Assembly (NCBI GenBank): GCA_965225945.1
Contig: CBDDBZ010000039.1
Location: forward strand, 320,001 to 384,000
DNA length: 64,000 nt
From: Alphaproteobacteria bacterium
Lineage (GTDB): Bacteria > Pseudomonadota > Alphaproteobacteria > GCA-2731375
Direction: 5' to 3'
Of the stretch, positions 2,136-10,527 are shown one piece after another; position 1 is the first letter of the stretch, and every line of letters starts with the position of its first letter. A program made the translations under genes and the position numbers. The notes under the pieces were generated by a model. It was not told where the DNA came from, did no database searches, and saw nothing but the letters and a program-made list of their open reading frames with translations.

Positions 2136-3358
2136 CACAGTACACGACTCGTTCATGCTGGCTTTGGCCTGGGCACCTGGACTGGTGGTTTTCCGGGGAC
2201 GAGGAAACGAATCAGCTCAATGGCTTGACGCCTGTCGATAGGATTGACGAGCTGTCGCCTTATCCACTCGAAACCGTATCGGAAGATGGATTTTGCCATC
2301 CTTTTGTGGGTTTTGAGGCGGATCGGCTCGGCCTCGTGGAGCCAATCGCCGACTTTGTGCGCCCAGCAGAAGGTGATGGAAAGGACGGCGGTGAGCTTGG
2401 AGATGCGCTCCGGGTCGGTCATGTGGGTGTCTTCGAGGTTGAAGCCACGGGTTTTCAAGGCGGCGAAGAGGGTCTCGATTTGCCAGCGCTGGGCGTAGAT
2501 GGCCAAGGCCTCCTCGGGCGCGTCGTTGGTCACGACGATCAACAGTTCGCCGGTCTTGAGATGGAGCGCGGCGACGAAGACGGGCCTGGCCTTGGGTTTT
2601 CTGGCCTCCGAGAGGCGCCTGGCGTTGGAGAGGATGCGGCTTTCCCCGGGTTTGAGGTCGCGAAACAGCTCCCTCGCCTTGACCATGCGACCACGCGTGT
2701 TGGCGATCTTGATGTTGGATCGGATGCGGATGTGAAAGGGGATGGCCTTTTCCTGCAACCATGCCAGCCAGGCGTCGCCGATGAATTCCCGGTCGGCCAG
2801 GAGGCTGGCGATCTTGTCGACCCCGAAGAGCCGGAGGACGTGTTCGAGGATCGCGATCCGCTCCTTGGTATTGGAATTGCCCGCCTTGTCGAGCACCCGC
2901 CAGCACACGGGAATGGCGATGGCGCGGTTGACGATGCCGATCATCAAGATGTTGACGTCGCGGCGACCCAGCCGCCAGTTGGTCCGGTCCATGGTCAGCC
3001 GCCACGGCCCCGCCTGGAGCCCCATCATCGCGACCAGGAACTCGGCGAGGCGATCGTAATCGAAATCGACTTGCTCGAAAAACCGTTGCAGGCGCCGATA
3101 GTTGGAGCTGGATCGCGCGCGCCCCGGAAAGTGGCAGGCCAAGTGAGAGAGGTTCACCGTCCGGGCGACGAACACGCCGAAGACCAAGACGCAAAGGCTC
3201 TCCAGACGGCTCTTGCGAAAGGCGAAGCCGCATCGTAGCGTCTCACGCAGGGCGTTGATCGGGTTGTCTCGCATGATTTCCCTCTTGACTCGTCGTGGAG
3301 TGAATCGGGAATCCTACAACCTTTTCAACGTCCTACGTAAATGCCGTCGTGTACCATG
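2136..3358 (-). mobile_element. IS4-family element
   Basis: TIRs CACAGTACACGAC / CATGGTACACGAC (11/13); 9-bp TSD ATTGCGCCG at 2127-2135 and 3359-3367. Confidence 0.9.
2153..3274 (-). CDS. IS4-family DDE transposase (intact)
   Basis: MDRTNW, LADREFIG and the Y-x2-R-x3-E-x6-K signature YAQRWQIETLFAALK. Confidence 0.9.
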   Translation of the reverse strand: MRDNPINALRETLRCGFAFRKSRLESLCVLVFGVFVARTVNLSHLACHFPGRARSSSNYRRLQRFFEQVDFDYDRLAEFLVAMMGLQAGPWRLTMDRTNWRLGRRDVNILMIGIVNRAIAIPVCWRVLDKAGNSNTKERIAILEHVLRLFGVDKIASLLADREFIGDAWLAWLQEKAIPFHIRIRSNIKIANTRGRMVKARELFRDLKPGESRILSNARRLSEARKPKARPVFVAALHLKTGELLIVVTNDAPEEALAIYAQRWQIETLFAALKTRGFNLEDTHMTDPERISKLTAVLSITFCWAHKVGDWLHEAEPIRLKTHKRMAKSIFRYGFEWIRRQLVNPIDRRQAIELIRFLVPGKPPVQVPRPKPA

Positions 3359-3570: not shown

Positions 3571-4299
3571 TTAGGACCGATTCTTGAAGCGCCAGGAGTC
3601 GTTTCCGGTCTCGATGATCTCGCAGTGGTGCGTCAGACGATCGAGGAGCGCGGTGGTCATCTTGGCGTCGCCGAAGACGGACGGCCATTCGCCGAAGGTC
3701 AGGTTGGTGGTGACGATGATCGAGGTGCGCTCGTAGAGCCGGCTGACGAGGTGGAACAGCAGCTGGCCTCCGGTTTGGGCGAAGGGCAGGTAGCCGAGCT
3801 CGTCGAGGATGACGAGGTCGCGCCGGGCCAGCTGATCGGCGAGCCGGCCCTGGCGGCCGGCGCGGGCTTCGGCCTCGAGCCGGTTGACCAGGTCGACGAC
3901 GTTGAAGAAGCGGCCCCGGGCGCCATCGCGGATGCAGGCCCGCGCGATGGCGACGGCGAGATGGCTCTTGCCGGTGCCGGTGCCGCCGATCAGCACGGCG
4001 TTGCGCTGGTTGGCCAGGAAGCCGCCGACCGCCAACTCGCGGACCAGCGGCTCGTTGACCGGGGTGTCGGTGAAGTCGAAGTCGGCCAGCTCCTTGGCCA
4101 GCGGCAGCTTGGCGCCACTCATCTGGTACTTGATGGATCGCGCCTGCTTGTCGGCGATCTCGGCCTTCAACAGCTCGCCGATGATTCGCTGCATCGGATG
4201 CTGGCGCTTGAGGCCGTCGGCGAGCACCTCGTCGAACGCGTCGCGCATGCCGGCGAGCTTGAGTGCGGCCATCATCTCCAGGACCTCATGGCGCTCCAT
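3571..4299 (-). CDS. istB: IS21 helper ATPase IstB (outer element)
   Basis: Walker A GGTGTGKS, Walker [27 protein letters not shown]. Confidence 0.93.
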
Positions 4300-4480
4300 G
4301 GCCGACCCCCCTCAAGCGGTCGTAGCGGGTGCAATCGGCCACCGGCTCAAAGCGAAGACGCAGGTTCGCGGGCGTCGGGATCGGCGCCGTCTCGGACGGC
4401 TGGCGCCGACGATTGAGGATGTTGAGCACGACGTCGGCGCTGCACACGCCGCCAGCGAGCGCCTCGGCACAGGCGGCCTC
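4286..4480 (-). pseudogene. istA: Outer IstA C-terminal fragment
   Basis: EAACAEALAGG...[10 protein letters not shown] continues ...GLAAV of 8628-9944 in frame after removing 4487-8627 and one TSD copy. Confidence 0.88.
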
Positions 4481-4599
4481 CACCGCTGTTAGCGGTGGTT
4501 CCAGGGTGCGCTTATATGGTGCTCTTTTTGAGCGGTCGGTGGCGGTTGGCTGACGGGATGCTTTTGGGCTTGGCTGATTTTGTTTCGCGCTGTGGCTAT

Positions 4600-5496
4600 T
4601 CAGTCGAGGGGCCGGTCATCGATCTGGAGCGGTTCGCCGGCGCGGTCGCGCATGAGCATGTCGTTCCAGTCCAGGCCGTCGAGGGCAGGGCGCAGGCGGA
4701 CGACCCTGCTGTCGTTTCGGATGAGCCGTGCCGCGGCGTCATCGCCCTGGCGGGTGGCGTCGTAGGCGCAGAAGATCCGGCCGGGGTTCCAGGCCTCGAT
4801 CCATTCGGGGAGGCTTGCGGTGGCGCCGCCGGTTGAGACCACGGCGCATCCCTTGCGCCCGGCCGGGACGAGGTGGAGGGAGAGGACCGACAGGGCGTCG
4901 ATTGCGTTCTTGGCGAGGATGACGGAGTTCGGCCAGTCGGGTTCCCACGACATCCAGAAGCCGCCGCGCGCGGCGGCGCCGGTCGGCGCGAGGCGGCGTG
5001 GCGCCGCGGCAGGGACGATCTCGGCGCCGAGAGCCTCGCCGGCCGCGTTTCGGCGGACGAACACGGCGTTGCCGTGGCGGTCGGCGTAGAGCAAGCCGAG
5101 GTCGCGGCACAGGGCGACGAGCACATCCGCGAGGCCGCGCTGCTCGACGAGGTAGCTCTGGATGGCGGGCCAGTGGCGGTCCGGGCACGGCGGCTTCGGG
5201 TGGCGATCGGCCGGGAACCGGTCACGGCACGGCAGTTCCGAGAAGAAGCCGAGGGCCTCGGGCACGGTGCACCGGCAGGCATGGATTACCAGGTCGATCG
5301 CTCCGCCCCCGCCCTCGCCGCGCAGATGTTCGTAGAACATAAAGCCGTTGATGCTGATGACGGATCCGGGACGCCTCCAGCGCGCGGCATCGGTGGGATC
5401 GCGGCGGTAGCCGAGGCGGCGGACGACGTCTTCGAGGGGATAGCCTCGCAGGGCCTCGGCCCGCACCCGCCGGTCCCAGAGGCGGGGACCATCCAT
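4600..5496 (-). CDS. DUF3991/Toprim (primase-like) domain protein, passenger of inner IS21
   Basis: GGGAIDLV (primase Zn-domain-like), YLVEQRGL, LYADRHGNAVF, NAIDALS, CAYDA...GDDAA, DWNDML. Confidence 0.7.
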   Translation of the reverse strand: MDGPRLWDRRVRAEALRGYPLEDVVRRLGYRRDPTDAARWRRPGSVISINGFMFYEHLRGEGGGGAIDLVIHACRCTVPEALGFFSELPCRDRFPADRHPKPPCPDRHWPAIQSYLVEQRGLADVLVALCRDLGLLYADRHGNAVFVRRNAAGEALGAEIVPAAAPRRLAPTGAAARGGFWMSWEPDWPNSVILAKNAIDALSVLSLHLVPAGRKGCAVVSTGGATASLPEWIEAWNPGRIFCAYDATRQGDDAAARLIRNDSRVVRLRPALDGLDWNDMLMRDRAGEPLQIDDRPLD

Positions 5497-5498
5497 GG

Positions 5499-6287
5499 CT
5501 ACGCCGGCGGCGGTTCCCCGCGGTCCTGCACGCCGGCCTTGCCGGCTCGCCGCCGGCGGCGCTCGGCGCTGCGCTGCTTCTGGCGTTCCTCGGCCTCCTT
5601 GCGGCGCCAGGACTCGGCGTCGATGGCGATGATCTCGGCGTTGTGGACGAGGCGGTCGACCAGGGCGACGAGGCAGGCGGCGTTGGGGAAGGCCTCACCC
5701 CACTCGGCGAAGGGCCGGTTGGTGGTGATTATGGTGGAGTTCTGCTGGCTGCGGCTGGAGACGATGTTGAACAGCAGATCGGCATGGCGGTTGCTGTAGG
5801 ACAGGTATCCGACCTCGTCGATCACCAGCAGGTGCTGGCGGGCGTAGAAGCGCAGCCTGCGCTGAAGCAGGGTGTCGCTGTCGAGGGCGGCGAGCTCGCC
5901 GAGCATGCTGGCCGCGGTGGCGAAGCGCACGGTGTGGCCCTCGAGGACGGCGCGGTGGGCGATATTGGCGGCGATGGTCGACTTGCCGACGCCGTTTGGG
6001 CCGACCAGGACGACGTTGGCGGCCTCGTTGAGGAACTCGAGGCTCATGAGATCCTCGACGGCCATGCGGTCGCAGCGGCGCGGCCATGCCCAGTCGAAGT
6101 CGGCGAGCGGCTTGAACTGTCCGAGGCGGGCGTCGCCGAGGCGGCGCTTGAGGCTGCGGCTTCGCCGTTCCTCCTCTTCCCAGGCGACCAGCGCAGCGGG
6201 CCAGTCATGCCCGGCGACCTCGCCCCAGTGGGCGGCGAGGCCGTGCAGGCCGAGCGCCCGGGCACGGCCCATGAGGGTATCGTTCAT
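5499..6287 (-). CDS. istB: IS21 helper ATPase IstB (inner element)
   Basis: Start MNDTLM overlaps istA stop (ATGA); [24 protein letters not shown]. Confidence 0.92.
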
Positions 6288-7789
6288 TGCTCGCTGTCCT
6301 CCTCGGGTTCGCCGGCCAGCCCGTCGTATCCGACGAGGTCGTGATCGCGGACAGTGATGTCGCGCACTCTCGGATCGCCGGGCAGTTCGACGGGGATGGG
6401 CGGGGGTTGGTGCCGCAGCTCGCGCCGCCGGGTCAGGCTCAGGCGCACGGCGTTGGGATGGGGAACGTCCCGCTTCAGGGCCTCGTCGATGGCCGCCTCG
6501 AGCTCGGCGGCGCCGTAGGCGTCGAGGAGGCGCAACAGGGCGGCGACGGTGGCGCCTATATAGCCGCCGCGCTGGGCGGCCTCGGCGAGCAGGCGCTCGC
6601 TGTTGGGCGCGGCCTGGACCAGCCGGTCCTGGCCGCGAAGGCGGCGGGCATGGCTCTTGCGCCTGACCAGCTCGGCGATGTGCTCGGGGTTCTCGATGCG
6701 GGCCGCCTTGTCGAAGCTGCGCGGATGGCTGGCGATGACGTCCACACCGTCGAGGATGCGCACCTCGTCGAGCGTCGCGACCACGACGAGGGTGCGCCGC
6801 ACATGGGTGTGCGGCACGCTGTAATCGTTGAGATCGAAGCGGGCGTAGGGGGTCTTGCCGATGGCGACCTCGACCCGGTCGTGGTCGGGGAAGGGATCGC
6901 CGGGCAGCGCGATGAGAGAGCCGCGTTCCCGCTCGAAGGCCTCGCGCACGGTGATCGAGCGGTCTTCGGGCCAGGGGCGGTCGGCGGCGATGCCGTGGCA
7001 CCAGGCCAGGGCCTGGGCGTTGAGATCGTCGATATCGCGCCACCGGCGGGCGGCGAAGAAGCTGGTCCGGACATAGCGAATCGCCCGCTCCACGCGCCCC
7101 TTCTCGTTGCCGCGCGCGACCGCGACGGGCTTGGGCAGGAAGTGGTAGTGGCCGGCGAGGTCGAGGATCCGGGGATTGAACCGGATGGCGGCGCCGCGGC
7201 GCTCCAGCACGACGCTCTTCAGGTTGTCGTACCAGAGCTCGCGGGGCACGCCCTGCCACGCCTCGAAGGCTTCGACATGGCCGCGCAGGAAGTTGCTCAT
7301 CCCGGCGTCGAGGTAGAAGCGCAGGAAGATCCGCCGCGAGTAGCTGAGAACCATCACGAAGCCCATCAGGCGGCGCTCCGCGCGGCCGATCGTCACCTTG
7401 CCGAAGTGTCCCCAGTCGACCTGGGCCTGCTCGCCGGGAAGGGTCTTGAGGCGCAGATAGGCCTCGGCCACGGGCCTGGGCCTGAAGTGGCTGAGCAGAT
7501 GACGGAAGTGGTCGCCGCCGCCCGGATAGCCGCGTTCGCGCACCATCTGGTAGAGCCGGCTGGCGGGCAGCGTCGGCCAGGATGCCAGCGTCTCGGCGAT
7601 GAACGGCACGTATGGATCGATCATCGACGGCCTGGGCGACCTCGCGTCCCGGGGCTCGCCGGCCGCGGTGAGGAGGCGCTCGACGGTGTAGCGATGCACG
7701 CCGAGCTGGCGTGTGATCGTGCCGACCGTCCACTTCTCGACGTGATACAGGCGCAGGATCTCCGCGCGGGTCTCCTTGTCGATGGTCAT
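6284..7789 (-). CDS. istA: IS21 transposase IstA (inner element, intact)
   Basis: N-terminal [27 protein letters not shown]. Confidence 0.92.
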
Positions 7790-8226
7790 CTCACCCCCTT
7801 TCCCGTCGGGCGCAGCCCCGGATAGACCGCCTGCCCGCAGAACCGGCCGCAGCGATCGCAGCGGAAGACCCTGGCGGGCCGCTCGTGCCCGAAGGGCCGT
7901 GTTCCGGGACGCCCTGCCGGCGTCCGCGCCACAACAGGACGCCGCCGCGCGGCGGTCAAAGGGTGATGCGTCACTTCCTGCCCGCGGCGCCGATTCACCG
8001 GCGTCCGGCGCCGCCGGCGTTCGCGATAGCGCCGCTGGCGCTCAGCATGCTTGTGACGGCCCCGCCGGCTGTTCTGGTAGCGCTGCCCGGCATGGCGCTG
8101 CGATCGCCGGCGCACCCGATCGCTGCAGCTCCGTGAACAGTAGATGTTGCCGTGGTCGCAGTGCCGGCAGAGAACCACCTGTTGATGGCACGAGGCGCAG
8201 TTGAACAGGCGGGCGGTGTTCTTCAT
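7786..8226 (-). CDS. Cys-rich putative Zn-binding, Arg-rich protein upstream of istA
   Basis: CASC, CRHC, YCSRSC and C-terminal CDRCGRFC; stop overlaps istA ATG (ATGA); start codon choice uncertain. Confidence 0.65.
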
Positions 8227-8627
8227 CGCGCAGCCGATGAGAACGGGGTGGACCCACGCCCAAACCCGCACGATACTGCGCATATGGGTCGTGCCTTGCA
8301 TGGCTCGGGGGGTGCGGTGCCGGTCGTTGCCAGCAAGCAAACGGGGCCGGCGCCGCATCGTTCTCAGCGGCCCGAGTGTACTCCCGCGGCTCCCCTTGTC
8401 AGGTCCGCGGAACCGCCGCCGCCAGCCAGCCAAAACAGGAATCGAGACGCCCGCCCGCGGTGGATAAGCAGCCCGCCGCCGCCAGACTCTTGGCGGTCGC
8501 TGCGGCGGGCTACTTACCCACCGCTGCGCCGAGCCAACTCCCGCCTGCAAACCACGCAGCTACAGCGCCACGATGCCCGATGTCGCTGAAATCACCATCT
8601 AAGCGCGGTTTTTCATCGCCACCGACA

Positions 8628-9944
8628 CACCGCCGCCAGCCCATCCGCCAGCACGGCGGTGAGGATCTCGACCATCTGCCTGTCGCCGTCGTCGTGGCCG
8701 GCGAGCCGGACGCGCACGCGACCCAGGGCGCCGGGCAGCGCCCAGTCCTTGAACGGCGCGCCGTTACGAAGCGCACCGGGCTTCCTCGCCAGCACGGGCA
8801 CGTAGTGCCACGGGTCATAGACGGTCTGGTCGCGGCCGAAGCGCCGGGCATGCTCGGCGACGATCTCGCCGTCCTGGCGGATGACGATGCGATCGGCGTA
8901 GGCATGGACCTCGACCGGACGGCCGACGGCGCGCGCCGCCACGCTGTACTTGTTGCTGTCGAAGCGCACCAGGCAGGTCTTCGACACCGACGCCGGGACC
9001 GCGTGGAAGCCGTCGAACGGCCCGCGATAGCCGACCAGGGACGGACGCTCGTCCTCGAACACCTGCCAGACAGTCCTGTCCTTGAACACCGGGTGGGGAT
9101 GACGCCGGGCGTAGGCGACGCACTGGTCCAAGAGCCAGGCGTTGAGCTCGTCGTAGGTCTTGAAGCGCAGCCGCGGGGTGAAGAACCGACCGCGGATGAT
9201 CCCGACCTGGTTCTCGACCTGCCCCTTCTCCCATCCCGCTCCCGGCGTGCATGCTGTCGGTTCGACCAGGTAGTGGCCACACATCTGCACGAAGCGCCGG
9301 TTGAACGCGCGCTCCTTGCCGATGAGGACGGTCTGCACCGCCGTCTTCATGTTGTCGTAGATGCCTCGCCGGCAGGCACCCTGGAACAGCCGGAATGCCC
9401 GGTCGTGGGCGTCGAACACCATCTCCTGGCTCTCGCGCGGATAAGCGCGGACGAAGAACATTCGGCTGTGGCACAGCCGGACGTGCGCGACCTTGACCTT
9501 GGTCGTCACCCCCGCCAGCACCACGTACTCGTGGCTCCAGTCGAACTGATAGGCCTCGCCCGGCGAGAACACCAACGGCACATAGGTCTGCGCCGTCGAT
9601 GCCGAACGGCGCCACCGCCACGCCTTGGCGTAGCGCCGCACCGCGTCGTAGCCGCCGCCATAGCCCAGACCCTCGAGGGCTTCGGAGATCCGTAGCAGCG
9701 TCAGCCGCTCCCGCTTCGACTTGGTCTCGTTGGCCTCCAGCATCCGCTCCAGCTCGGCCGTCCACGGCCCCAGCTTCGGCATCGGCTGGACCCGCCGGTC
9801 GTAGGTGAACGCCGTCGCCTGCGAACGGATCACCTTGCGCACCGTGTTGCCCGAGACCTTCACGTCCCGCACGATCTCCTTGATCGGCTTCCCCTTGACG
9901 AAATACTCCCGCCGGATCCGCGCTATCGTCTCCACGACCAACAT
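8628..9944 (-). pseudogene. istA: Outer IstA N-terminal part (interrupted)
   Basis: PGEAYQFDWS, YDNMKT, WEKGQVENQV; broken by inner IS21. Confidence 0.9.
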
Positions 9945-10064
9945 CCCCCACCACCTCGTCCGCCCAAAAACGAGGTGACTTGGACTAGCCAGGCTCAGGG
10001 GGTCAAATTTGGACGCCGATCACCCCTCAACAGGGGTCAACTTTGCACGCCGTTCCACACGCCG

Positions 10065-10527
10065 CGCCTGCCACGCGGTAAATCTCGCCCGGGAGCGGGG
10101 CGTGGCGCTGAAACCAGGCCTCGTCGAGCGCTTCCGAGGGTGTTACGACGCGATCACGGCCGAGGGCATCGCCTTTCACGAGGCACAACCTCCTCTTGCG
10201 CCCAGATCGAGCAAGGCCAAGCGCCGGGGAAGCAAGCCGCGCCGCACCGGGCACAACCTTCTCCGGCGCCTTCAGACACACAAGGAAGACGCGCTGCGCT
10301 TCCTCATCAATTTCGCCGTGCCGTTCACCAACAATCAGGCCGAGCAGGACGGGCGCATGATGAAGGTCAAGCAGAAAATCTCCGGCGGCTTCCGCAGCCA
10401 GAAAGGCGCCGAAGACTTTGCCACCGTCCGCGGCTTCATCTCGACCGCCAGAAAACAGGGCTGGAACATCATCCAGGCGCTCATGGAAAATCCCGAAACC
10501 CTGATCGAGCGTCTCCACGCCGCCTAA
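10065..10527 (+). pseudogene. IS66 transposase, C-terminal part
   Basis: ACHAVNLAR...VPFTNNQAEQDGRMMKVKQKISGGFRS; rejoins 1159-2135 in frame (1440 nt total). Confidence 0.9.

Follow-up and report, generated by a model that had tools for sequence, protein, structure and literature searches.

The 64,000-nucleotide window analysed here (positions 320,001 to 384,000 of contig CBDDBZ010000039.1 from the alphaproteobacterial assembly GCA_965225945.1) carries at 4487-8627 one copy of a recently expanded insertion sequence (IS) of the IS21 family. The element belongs to a distinct IS21 subgroup in which two further genes are built in beside the transposase gene istA and the helper ATPase gene istB, namely a gene for a cysteine-rich (Cys-rich) protein in front of istA and a DUF3991/Toprim gene behind istB. 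This architecture is wider than one element, the two accessory genes differ in their range, and the Toprim protein of the window is a pseudo-enzyme. Below, we present the copies and boundaries of the element, the two accessory proteins and their distribution, and a proposed working of the system.

Copies and boundaries of the element

A blastn search with the 4141-bp unit against the window's own assembly (39 contigs, 6.27 Mb) returned 27 matches, comprising 19 full-length copies (99.3-100% identity), two copies split by another insertion (four rows), and four fragments. Direct repeats were found at 15 of the 19 full-length copies (5 bp in seven, 6 bp in five, and 7 bp in three) and at none of the other four. 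Because two copies have identical flanks, these repeats represent 14 distinct sites with a duplication. All 19 full-length copies hold the same four coupled genes, with 77 alignment columns differing among them. For any one of the four genes, 18 of the 19 copies have an intact version, and 15 copies have all four intact. A 6-bp in-frame deletion within the Toprim gene occurs in seven of the 19 copies, a split that reveals two sublineages, both of which have multiplied.

In the window, TGTTAGCGG opens the element at 4487 and CCACCGACA closes it at 8627, giving ends of the TG...CA type (TGT.../...ACA). The two ends are imperfect inverted repeats with 22 of 35 positions identical, as counted by hand on the alignment, and the conserved core of these terminal inverted repeats (TIRs), TGT..G.G..G.T...A....GCGC.TA...G.TG, is common to the ends of a related element in another assembly. 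The TIR at 4487 was unchanged in 18 of the 19 copies and had three altered bases in the remaining one. Two subterminal matches to the end motif were found versus 1.1 expected, and a multiple-repeat structure was thus not supported. The insertion target is the istA gene of a different, ordinary two-gene IS21, which is present at more than 40 places in the genome (tblastn) and whose IstA is ~31% identical to that of the element. In four of four public runs, which come from two studies and are labelled sponge metagenome or similar, contigs connect 4480 with 8628. This joint skips 4147 bases, with six ambiguous letters, and corresponds to the unoccupied target with a single CACCGC. Since the target IS21 is itself multi-copy, the joint demonstrates the boundaries of the element, not its excision.

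The related element in the other assembly is 4049 bp long, and its Cys-rich, IstA, IstB, and Toprim proteins are 77%, 79%, 90%, and 62% identical to those of the window, respectively. Exactly equal boundaries, with different flanks and repeats of 5-7 bp, were found at 11 of its 18 compared loci. Among 40 related genomes, the Cys-rich protein was detected in one, which belongs to the same genus and has a single match at 99% identity (G002:C4:30575-31012, L012). Compared with the 23 matches in the window's genome, this single match suggests a recent burst in the latter. The earlier note on this DNA, made from its letters alone, had described a 4141-bp unit with TG...CA ends and a 6-bp target duplication that moved as one piece, with four co-oriented genes coupled by two ATGA overlaps and a 2-nt gap. 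Every checkable detail of that description proved accurate, its mobility is borne out by the copies and the empty site, and the other copies with different target duplications that the note proposed to look for were found at the 14 sites.

The element has the IS21-family features of an IstA-type DDE transposase (249.1 bits against NF033546, cut-off 160; PF22483 at E = 6.1e-22), a downstream IstB (204.3 bits against NF038214, cut-off 200; PF01695 at E = 1.8e-53), and TG...CA TIRs with a short target duplication. IS21 elements are usually 1.75-2.6 kb in size, with target duplications of 4-8 bp. Canonical members such as IS21 and IS5376 have in common with the present element an istA gene followed by an overlapping istB gene, TG...CA ends, imperfect multi-part terminal repeats, and short duplications. 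They differ in gene content, since members of the family are two open reading frames (ORFs) between two TIRs according to PMC10122671, whereas four conserved genes lie inside the TIRs of the 4141-bp element, and its relatives have three genes (3.1-3.4 kb) or five (about 5 kb).

A large family of cysteine-rich proteins in front of IstA

No Pfam or other family match was obtained for the Cys-rich protein. Near-length homologues numbered 218 at E <= 1e-3, and no Pfam domain occurred among the 120 of them that were listed. The profile of the protein matched 3789 cluster representatives at E <= 1e-3 (2587 at 1e-10 and 614 at 1e-30), mostly of 140-150 aa. The protein has an N-terminal module of six cysteines (C10, C13, C20, C23, C30, and C34), two long Arg-rich helices, and a C-terminal CxxC..C motif (C123, C126, and C130). 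Cysteines C10, C13, C23, C30, and C34 are invariant, and C20, C123, C126, and C130 are present in at least 90% of the sequences. The AlphaFold2 (AF2) model is confident for residues 11-70, with a predicted local distance difference test (pLDDT) score of 89-96, and contains two beta hairpins followed by helices 32-52 and 54-74. The best match of the profile among sequences of the Protein Data Bank (PDB) was uS14 (E = 0.24), and searches of the ESM Atlas returned unnamed clusters only. In a comparison with the cross-brace pattern of MYND fingers (C-x2-C ... C-x2-C ... C-x3-C ... H-x3-C), the spacing of the first six cysteines fits, only four of 23 members matched PF01753 (best E = 0.064, below the cut-off), and the last two ligands do not stand at the positions of the pattern.

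The genomic context of the two accessory genes was established in two samples of loci, one from genomes and one from metagenomes. Both consist of the best 80 hits of pattern-seeded scans, and many loci are copies from single assemblies, so that the fractions reported here are not population estimates. The genome scan covered one genome per species, and 234 of its 244 pattern hits encode a relative of the Cys-rich protein. In 73 of the best 80 genome loci, an IstA-like gene starts at most 700 bp downstream of the Cys-rich gene, and in five of these 73 the match covers only the first 44-95 residues of IstA. The labels of the 80 loci include Alpha- and Gammaproteobacteria, Burkholderiaceae, Legionella, Coxiellaceae, Gemmatimonadota, Limisphaerales, Obscuribacteraceae, and others. 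The frame, length, and cysteine pattern are kept, at 36-84% identity, in members as far apart as those of Alphaproteobacteria, Coxiellaceae, Legionella, and an Obscuribacteraceae assembly. In multi-copy elements of three genes (Cys-rich, IstA, and IstB; 3107-3391 bp), the boundaries common to the copies enclose the Cys-rich gene. Plasmids of Burkholderia have an intact homologue of 147 aa upstream of istA and istB genes; RefSeq annotates these two genes but not the homologue. The same Burkholderia elements have a further, annotated hypothetical ORF of ~72 aa overlapping the end of istB (L192 7694-7912; L193 7190-7405). As judged from this synteny and conservation, the Cys-rich family can be regarded as a hallmark of a large IS21 subgroup.

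The Cys-rich gene was also found with other recombinases. In L026 (6001-10359), L027, and L054, a homologue 75-77% identical to the window protein precedes a 244-aa fusion of an IstA-like N-terminal helix-turn-helix (HTH) with a resolvase, followed downstream by a 514-aa serine recombinase and two ParB/RepB genes. These loci seem to belong to a distinct mobile element in which the front module has been reused. In L086, the Cys-rich gene precedes an rve transposase. Fusions of the Cys-rich protein are rare, with five longer homologues, one of which contains HTH_23. The production of a Cys-rich/IstA fusion by frameshifting, as in IS1 and IS3, was considered and rejected because distant relatives have a gap of 80-250 bp or a ParB-like gene between the two genes and because fusions are rare. 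A complex prediction for IstA and the Cys-rich protein scored 0.00 in two runs made without controls and speaks neither for nor against binding.

The Toprim protein is a predicted pseudo-primase

The Toprim protein matched DUF3991 (PF13154; 36.6 bits, cut-off 24.5; residues 114-160) and Toprim_2 (22.8 bits, cut-off 22.1). Its AF2 model (pLDDT 85) was matched by Foldseek to the Aquifex primase, the E. coli DnaG core, T7 gp4, and Twinkle (E = 1.7e-6 to 1e-3), over residues ~100-290 and with modest TM-scores (0.31-0.45). The matches to DnaG cores had a probability of 1.00, and the Toprim fold follows a primase N-terminal subdomain as in DnaG-type enzymes. An alignment of the family profile to E. 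coli DnaG was in register and placed the Glu and DxD positions onto VVEGYMD and YDGDRAG, although it was weak (E = 0.29). The window protein thus has the fold of DnaG-type primases and differs from them in its active site and in its flanking domains. Its catalytic Glu is replaced by Lys and its DxD by DAT, leaving the acidic catalytic motif of DnaG incomplete; no zf-CHC2 match was found in it at E <= 0.1, and a helicase-binding domain is likewise absent. Residues 44-72 resemble, by eye only, a CHC2 motif without its cysteines.

The catalytic residues were counted in 109 aligned family members, in which the window clade was defined as the sequences at least 57% identical to the window protein. 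In this clade, the Glu is replaced in 63 of 64 sequences (Lys in 24, Gly in 19, Ala in 15, Asp in three, and Asn in two) and the second Asp of the DxD in all 64. Glu and DxD are both kept in all 45 relatives outside the clade, which fall into the Tni-associated and five-gene groups described below. Since the catalytic Glu and DxD are lost, the Toprim protein of the window clade cannot be a conventional primase or nuclease, and the nucleic-acid role suggested in the earlier note fails if it is read in that sense. On the evidence of sequence and model, we regard the protein as a homologue of DnaG-type primases and a predicted pseudo-primase.

Range and relatives of the Toprim gene

Among the genome loci, the Toprim gene follows istB only in a close clade (27 of 80 loci in seven assemblies, with 21 loci from one assembly). 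Its ORF is full length in all 27 save the interrupted or truncated loci. The window's Toprim protein, used as a query, had no match at E <= 1e-20 in any of 400 further genomes sampled from the class and matched its own genome alone. The metagenome scan was seeded with a Toprim group ~50% identical to the window protein. In 57 of its 80 loci, an IstB-like gene ends at most 300 bp upstream of the Toprim gene; a TniB-like AAA_22 ATPase gene lies upstream in eight, eight are cut too near the gene for its context to be visible, and seven have another neighbour. The IstB-linked metagenome elements are very divergent from the window (IstA 25-30%, IstB 24-32%, and Toprim 31-38% identical).

The full gene order Cys-rich, ParB/KorB-like, IstA, IstB, and Toprim was observed in 23 loci. 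All five genes lie between inverted repeats in L144, L179, and L140, and in L133 and L150 such repeats stand at the contig ends; these five-gene elements measure ~4.9-5.2 kb. The possibility that such ~5-kb metagenome contigs are small plasmids was rejected, as the two ends overlapped in none of the 28 contigs checked and several contigs end in, or lie between, inverted repeats. The window element differs from the five-gene elements in having no ParB-like gene, a degenerate Toprim motif, and an IstA of only 25-30% identity. In L084, a window-type Cys-rich gene is followed by a ParB-like gene and then by a five-gene-type istA, and by its gene order this locus links the two architectures.

In a further set of loci (L111-L114, L119, L121, L125, and L128), named Tni-like from their Pfam domains (rve and AAA_22) and gene order and with undefined ends, a Toprim relative lies downstream of the TniB-like AAA_22 ATPase gene. 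One module (L112 1696-8909; also L111, L113, and L114) comprises a Cys-rich orf205, an rve transposase gene, the AAA_22 ATPase gene, orf352, an intact DUF3991/Toprim gene, and an NYN/OST-HTH gene. In another and more divergent group of loci, the Toprim gene is directly 3' of the ATPase gene. No TniQ or resolvase model matched on the Tni-like loci, and the Cys-rich ORF of the module showed no relation to the five-gene Cys-rich family in an hhalign comparison (probability 1.3%). The module in L112 adjoins a truncated IS21 consisting of the C-terminus of IstA and half of IstB. Tn5053/Tn402 (TniA-TniB-TniQ) and Mu/Tn7-type transposons share with the window element the pairing of a DDE transposase with a dedicated AAA+ ATPase, and we know of no Toprim component of Tn5053, Mu, or Tn7.

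Homologues of the Toprim protein, 160-520 aa in length, numbered 194. In a quick maximum-likelihood tree of 58 rows, supported by the Shimodaira-Hasegawa-like approximate likelihood ratio test (SH-aLRT) only and unsure in its root because the plasmid outgroup is not monophyletic, the degenerate clade came out as monophyletic with a support of 100, and its branch, at 0.87 changes per column, is the longest of the inner branches. The clade was sister to the Tni-associated group (support 94), and the five-gene group was separate (support 93). This placement suggests that the Toprim gene of the window clade came from a Tni-linked lineage, not by five-gene IS21 descent, and that its active site was lost upon this acquisition. 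The window protein would thus descend from catalytically intact versions encoded after the AAA+ ATPase gene in Tni-like transposons, and the more distant Toprim relatives encoded after istB in the five-gene IS21-like elements are equally intact.

The same two-domain DUF3991/Toprim module is found in 76 plasmid records at 27-33% identity over ~90% of the length. The plasmid modules differ in being located in transfer regions or fused to MobV relaxases, not in transposons. We found no established function for them in the papers retrieved, in which DUF3991 appears only in tables of plasmids or of integrative and conjugative elements. A full-text literature search, which did not extend to the curated IS lists of ISfinder and TnCentral, gave no description of the four-gene architecture or of a transposon-encoded primase.

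Proposed working of the element and alternative explanations

Taken together, we consider it probable that the unit is a four-gene IS21 whose two accessory genes take part in transposition. The DDE transposase IstA and the AAA+ target-capture ATPase IstB would perform the chemistry and the target capture as in canonical IS21, and the four genes would form one coupled operon read from the 8627 end. The Cys-rich protein would be co-translated with IstA and would bind nucleic acid via its basic helices. We give about an even chance to the more specific proposal that this zinc-stabilised protein with an Arg-rich helical hairpin binds at or near the element ends or in the leader and acts as a cofactor of IstA or as an autoregulator. 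Such a role is known for the small upstream proteins IS1 InsA and IS3-family OrfA, and they offer a possible parallel in that they too are small, basic, and encoded upstream of and overlapping the transposase gene; they differ in that the Cys-rich protein has no sequence or fold similarity to them and no sign of a frameshift fusion with IstA. More tentatively, intact Toprim proteins may prime DNA synthesis on transposition intermediates, with the version of the window clade acting without catalysis, for example by binding DNA, a fork, or the ATPase; this version might also be on its way out.

Several points weigh against this reading. All of the roles are inferred from synteny, fold, and conservation, the loci are best-hit samples as described above, and gene context was established for the loci, the database proteins being placed in clades by identity. 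The Cys-rich model had no significant PDB neighbour in Foldseek (best YacG, E = 2), and the window and five-gene Cys-rich families were only weakly related in hhalign (E = 0.0019, probability 14.6%). Since the Cys-rich gene also stands before other recombinases (in L026, L027, L054, and L086), its role may extend beyond IstA. L049 (IstA 80% identical, with 3.7 kb after istB) lacks the Toprim gene, as probably does L051, and so do 15 other loci in which istB is followed by at least 1 kb; all 16 three-gene loci with room for the gene are without it. The absence of the gene from the nearest relatives indicates that it is dispensable for IS21-type transposition as such. Finally, a ratio of nonsynonymous to synonymous substitution rates (dN/dS) about twice that of istA would, together with the destroyed active site, also fit a slow decay of the Toprim gene.

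These last observations lead to the alternative that survives best, which we nevertheless judge unlikely, namely that an active primase gene entered from another mobile element in a single capture, lost its active site, and persists as the Toprim-like gene, a decaying passenger, which would leave the Cys-rich gene as the only true accessory. Such a passenger would account for the loss of the catalytic residues across the whole clade, the relatives without the gene (L049 and L051), and a Toprim dN/dS of 0.39-0.77, the highest of the four genes. (All dN/dS values were obtained with our own Nei-Gojobori script from pairs that are not independent.) It would also account for a stand-alone degenerate Toprim copy, 63% identical to the window protein, that lies outside any IS21 in the same genome. 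However, the Toprim ORF is full length in 18 of the 19 copies and in the Toprim-bearing genome loci, its dN/dS is below 1 in all 21 pairs, and 14 columns are invariant across the 109 family members. In addition, the age and diversity of the degenerate clade, whose 64 sequences range down to 57% identity, speak against a neutral relic, which would not stay intact over such a range. By these measures, the Toprim protein appears to be under relaxed purifying selection.

The stand-alone copy is located at C30:9340-10134 (L103 5341-6135) beside an ISLre2/UPF0236-like ORF and nests inside the degenerate clade. It has a duplicate at C38:350-1144, and the 5.2-kb segment concerned is present twice in the genome, once at a contig end.

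A second alternative assigns the extra genes to relations with the host, such as counter-defence, titration of a replication factor, or stability of the element, and not to the chemistry of transposition. The company that the Cys-rich gene keeps with other recombinase types would agree with this indirectly, as would the frequency of DUF3991/Toprim modules on conjugative or mobilisable plasmids, often fused to MobV relaxases. We hold it to be improbable, because the positions of the two genes are fixed, one standing directly in front of the transposase gene and the other directly behind the AAA+ ATPase gene, with stop and start codons that overlap, a layout that looks like stoichiometric co-expression with the transposition proteins. 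That the Cys-rich ORF is a chance open frame in GC-rich leader DNA can practically be dismissed: long spurious ORFs are indeed common in the GC-rich window and RefSeq leaves the homologous Burkholderia plasmid ORF unannotated, but the frame, length, and cysteine pattern are conserved, the family is represented in 3789 clusters, residues 11-70 are modelled confidently, and the pairwise dN/dS of 0.14-0.44 among six elements is similar to that of istA (0.26-0.41).

The preferred reading, a four-gene IS21 with accessories in transposition, modifies the core proposal of the earlier note, by which both extra genes are nucleic-acid related accessories of transposition and not cargo. The synteny upholds the part of the proposal that the extra genes belong to the element. 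For the Cys-rich gene, the not-cargo view is strengthened by its conserved place before an IstA-like gene in several phyla. For the Toprim gene, it is favoured by the positions after IstB-like and TniB-like genes in the metagenome loci and limited by the confinement to a subclade among the genome loci, and a role as a conventional primase or nuclease has to be given up. Target selection, circle processing, and regulation, which the note suggested as specific roles, are candidate functions only. The note had also reasoned that absence of the accessory genes from close relatives of this IstA would mark a one-off capture. Neither gene is one-off cargo; the Cys-rich gene recurs in such relatives, and the Toprim gene recurs in the subclade and is missing from L049 and the 15 further loci.

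Other features of the window

The coordinates of the element, its target, and its candidate control sites are given in Table 1. The promoter-like site is a consensus match only (one found versus 0.2 expected in shuffles), and together with the inverted repeat in the 400-nt leader it is a candidate control site. An Rfam search of 4200-8900 returned no match at E <= 0.1. Among contigs from RNA libraries, one of 4171 nt in X2 covers the element and others in X16 and X17 match parts of it; contigs are no proof of transcription, carry-over of DNA is possible, and no expression was inferred from them. The nested pair of IS21 elements is flanked by a 373-aa ORF with transposase-like sequence (2153-3274, minus strand) and by a 172-aa fragment (10009-10527, plus strand) that by eye resembles the C-terminus of IS66-type transposases. 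IS elements are extremely abundant in the genome; in addition to the two types of IS21, a Mutator-family (PF00872) element of 1450 bp occurs ~20 times.

Table 1. Positions of the four-gene IS21 element, its insertion target, and associated features in the window
Feature	Position	Strand	Remarks
Ordinary IS21 hosting the insertion	3571-4483 + 8613-9944	-	istA split at 4483/8628; istB 4299..3571
Target-site duplication, first copy, CACCGC	4481..4486	.	Directly outside the element end
TIR distal to the genes' start, beginning TGT	4487..4521	+	Two ends aligned with each other and with the ends of the related element
DUF3991/Toprim gene, DnaG-primase-like, 298 aa	5496..4600	-	Starts 2 nt after the istB stop; Pfam and Foldseek
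istB, AAA+ helper ATPase, 262 aa	6287..5499	-	PF01695, NF038214; ATGA overlap with istA
istA, DDE transposase, 501 aa	7789..6284	-	NF033546; HTH_23, rve, and Mu-transpos_C_2 domains
Cys-rich ORF, 146 aa from the ATG common to homologues	8226..7786	-	Stop overlaps istA start (ATGA)
Sigma-70-like promoter match CTGACA-16-TACACT	8375..8402	-	Sole match in the element, ~150 nt upstream of the Cys-rich gene
Inverted repeat of 26 nt, 88% complementary, 16-nt spacer	8457..8524	.	In the 400-nt leader
TIR proximal to the genes' start, ending ..ACA	8593..8627	-	Alignment of ends
Target-site duplication, second copy, CACCGC	8628..8633	.	Directly outside the other element end

Implications for the IS21 family

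IS21, described in PMC10122671 as a two-protein system, serves in structural and biochemical work as the model of a transposase under the control of an AAA+ ATPase, and the present analysis provides evidence for one to three further conserved genes in large, widespread branches of this family. The Cys-rich zinc-finger family is very large and without a Pfam model, and it is unannotated even on plasmids of cultured Burkholderia. The annotation of IS elements would gain from its recognition, as elements of 3.1-5.2 kb contain extra ORFs that are now labelled hypothetical or missed. The clade-wide catalytic loss in the Toprim protein provides a clean natural case of an enzyme turning into a pseudo-enzyme within a mobile element.

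The occurrence of a DnaG-like primase gene behind the ATPase gene in two transposon types points to an unstudied link between transposition and priming. We put forward, as a conjecture somewhat less likely to be right than wrong, that primase homologues and an unnamed zinc-finger family are recurrent parts of DDE transposons that use AAA+ ATPases and prime their own replication, with a catalytically dead adaptor still acting in the window element. Reconstitutions of the IS21 machinery have, to our knowledge, used IstA and IstB alone so far; if the conjecture is true, a third and a fourth protein would join this machinery.

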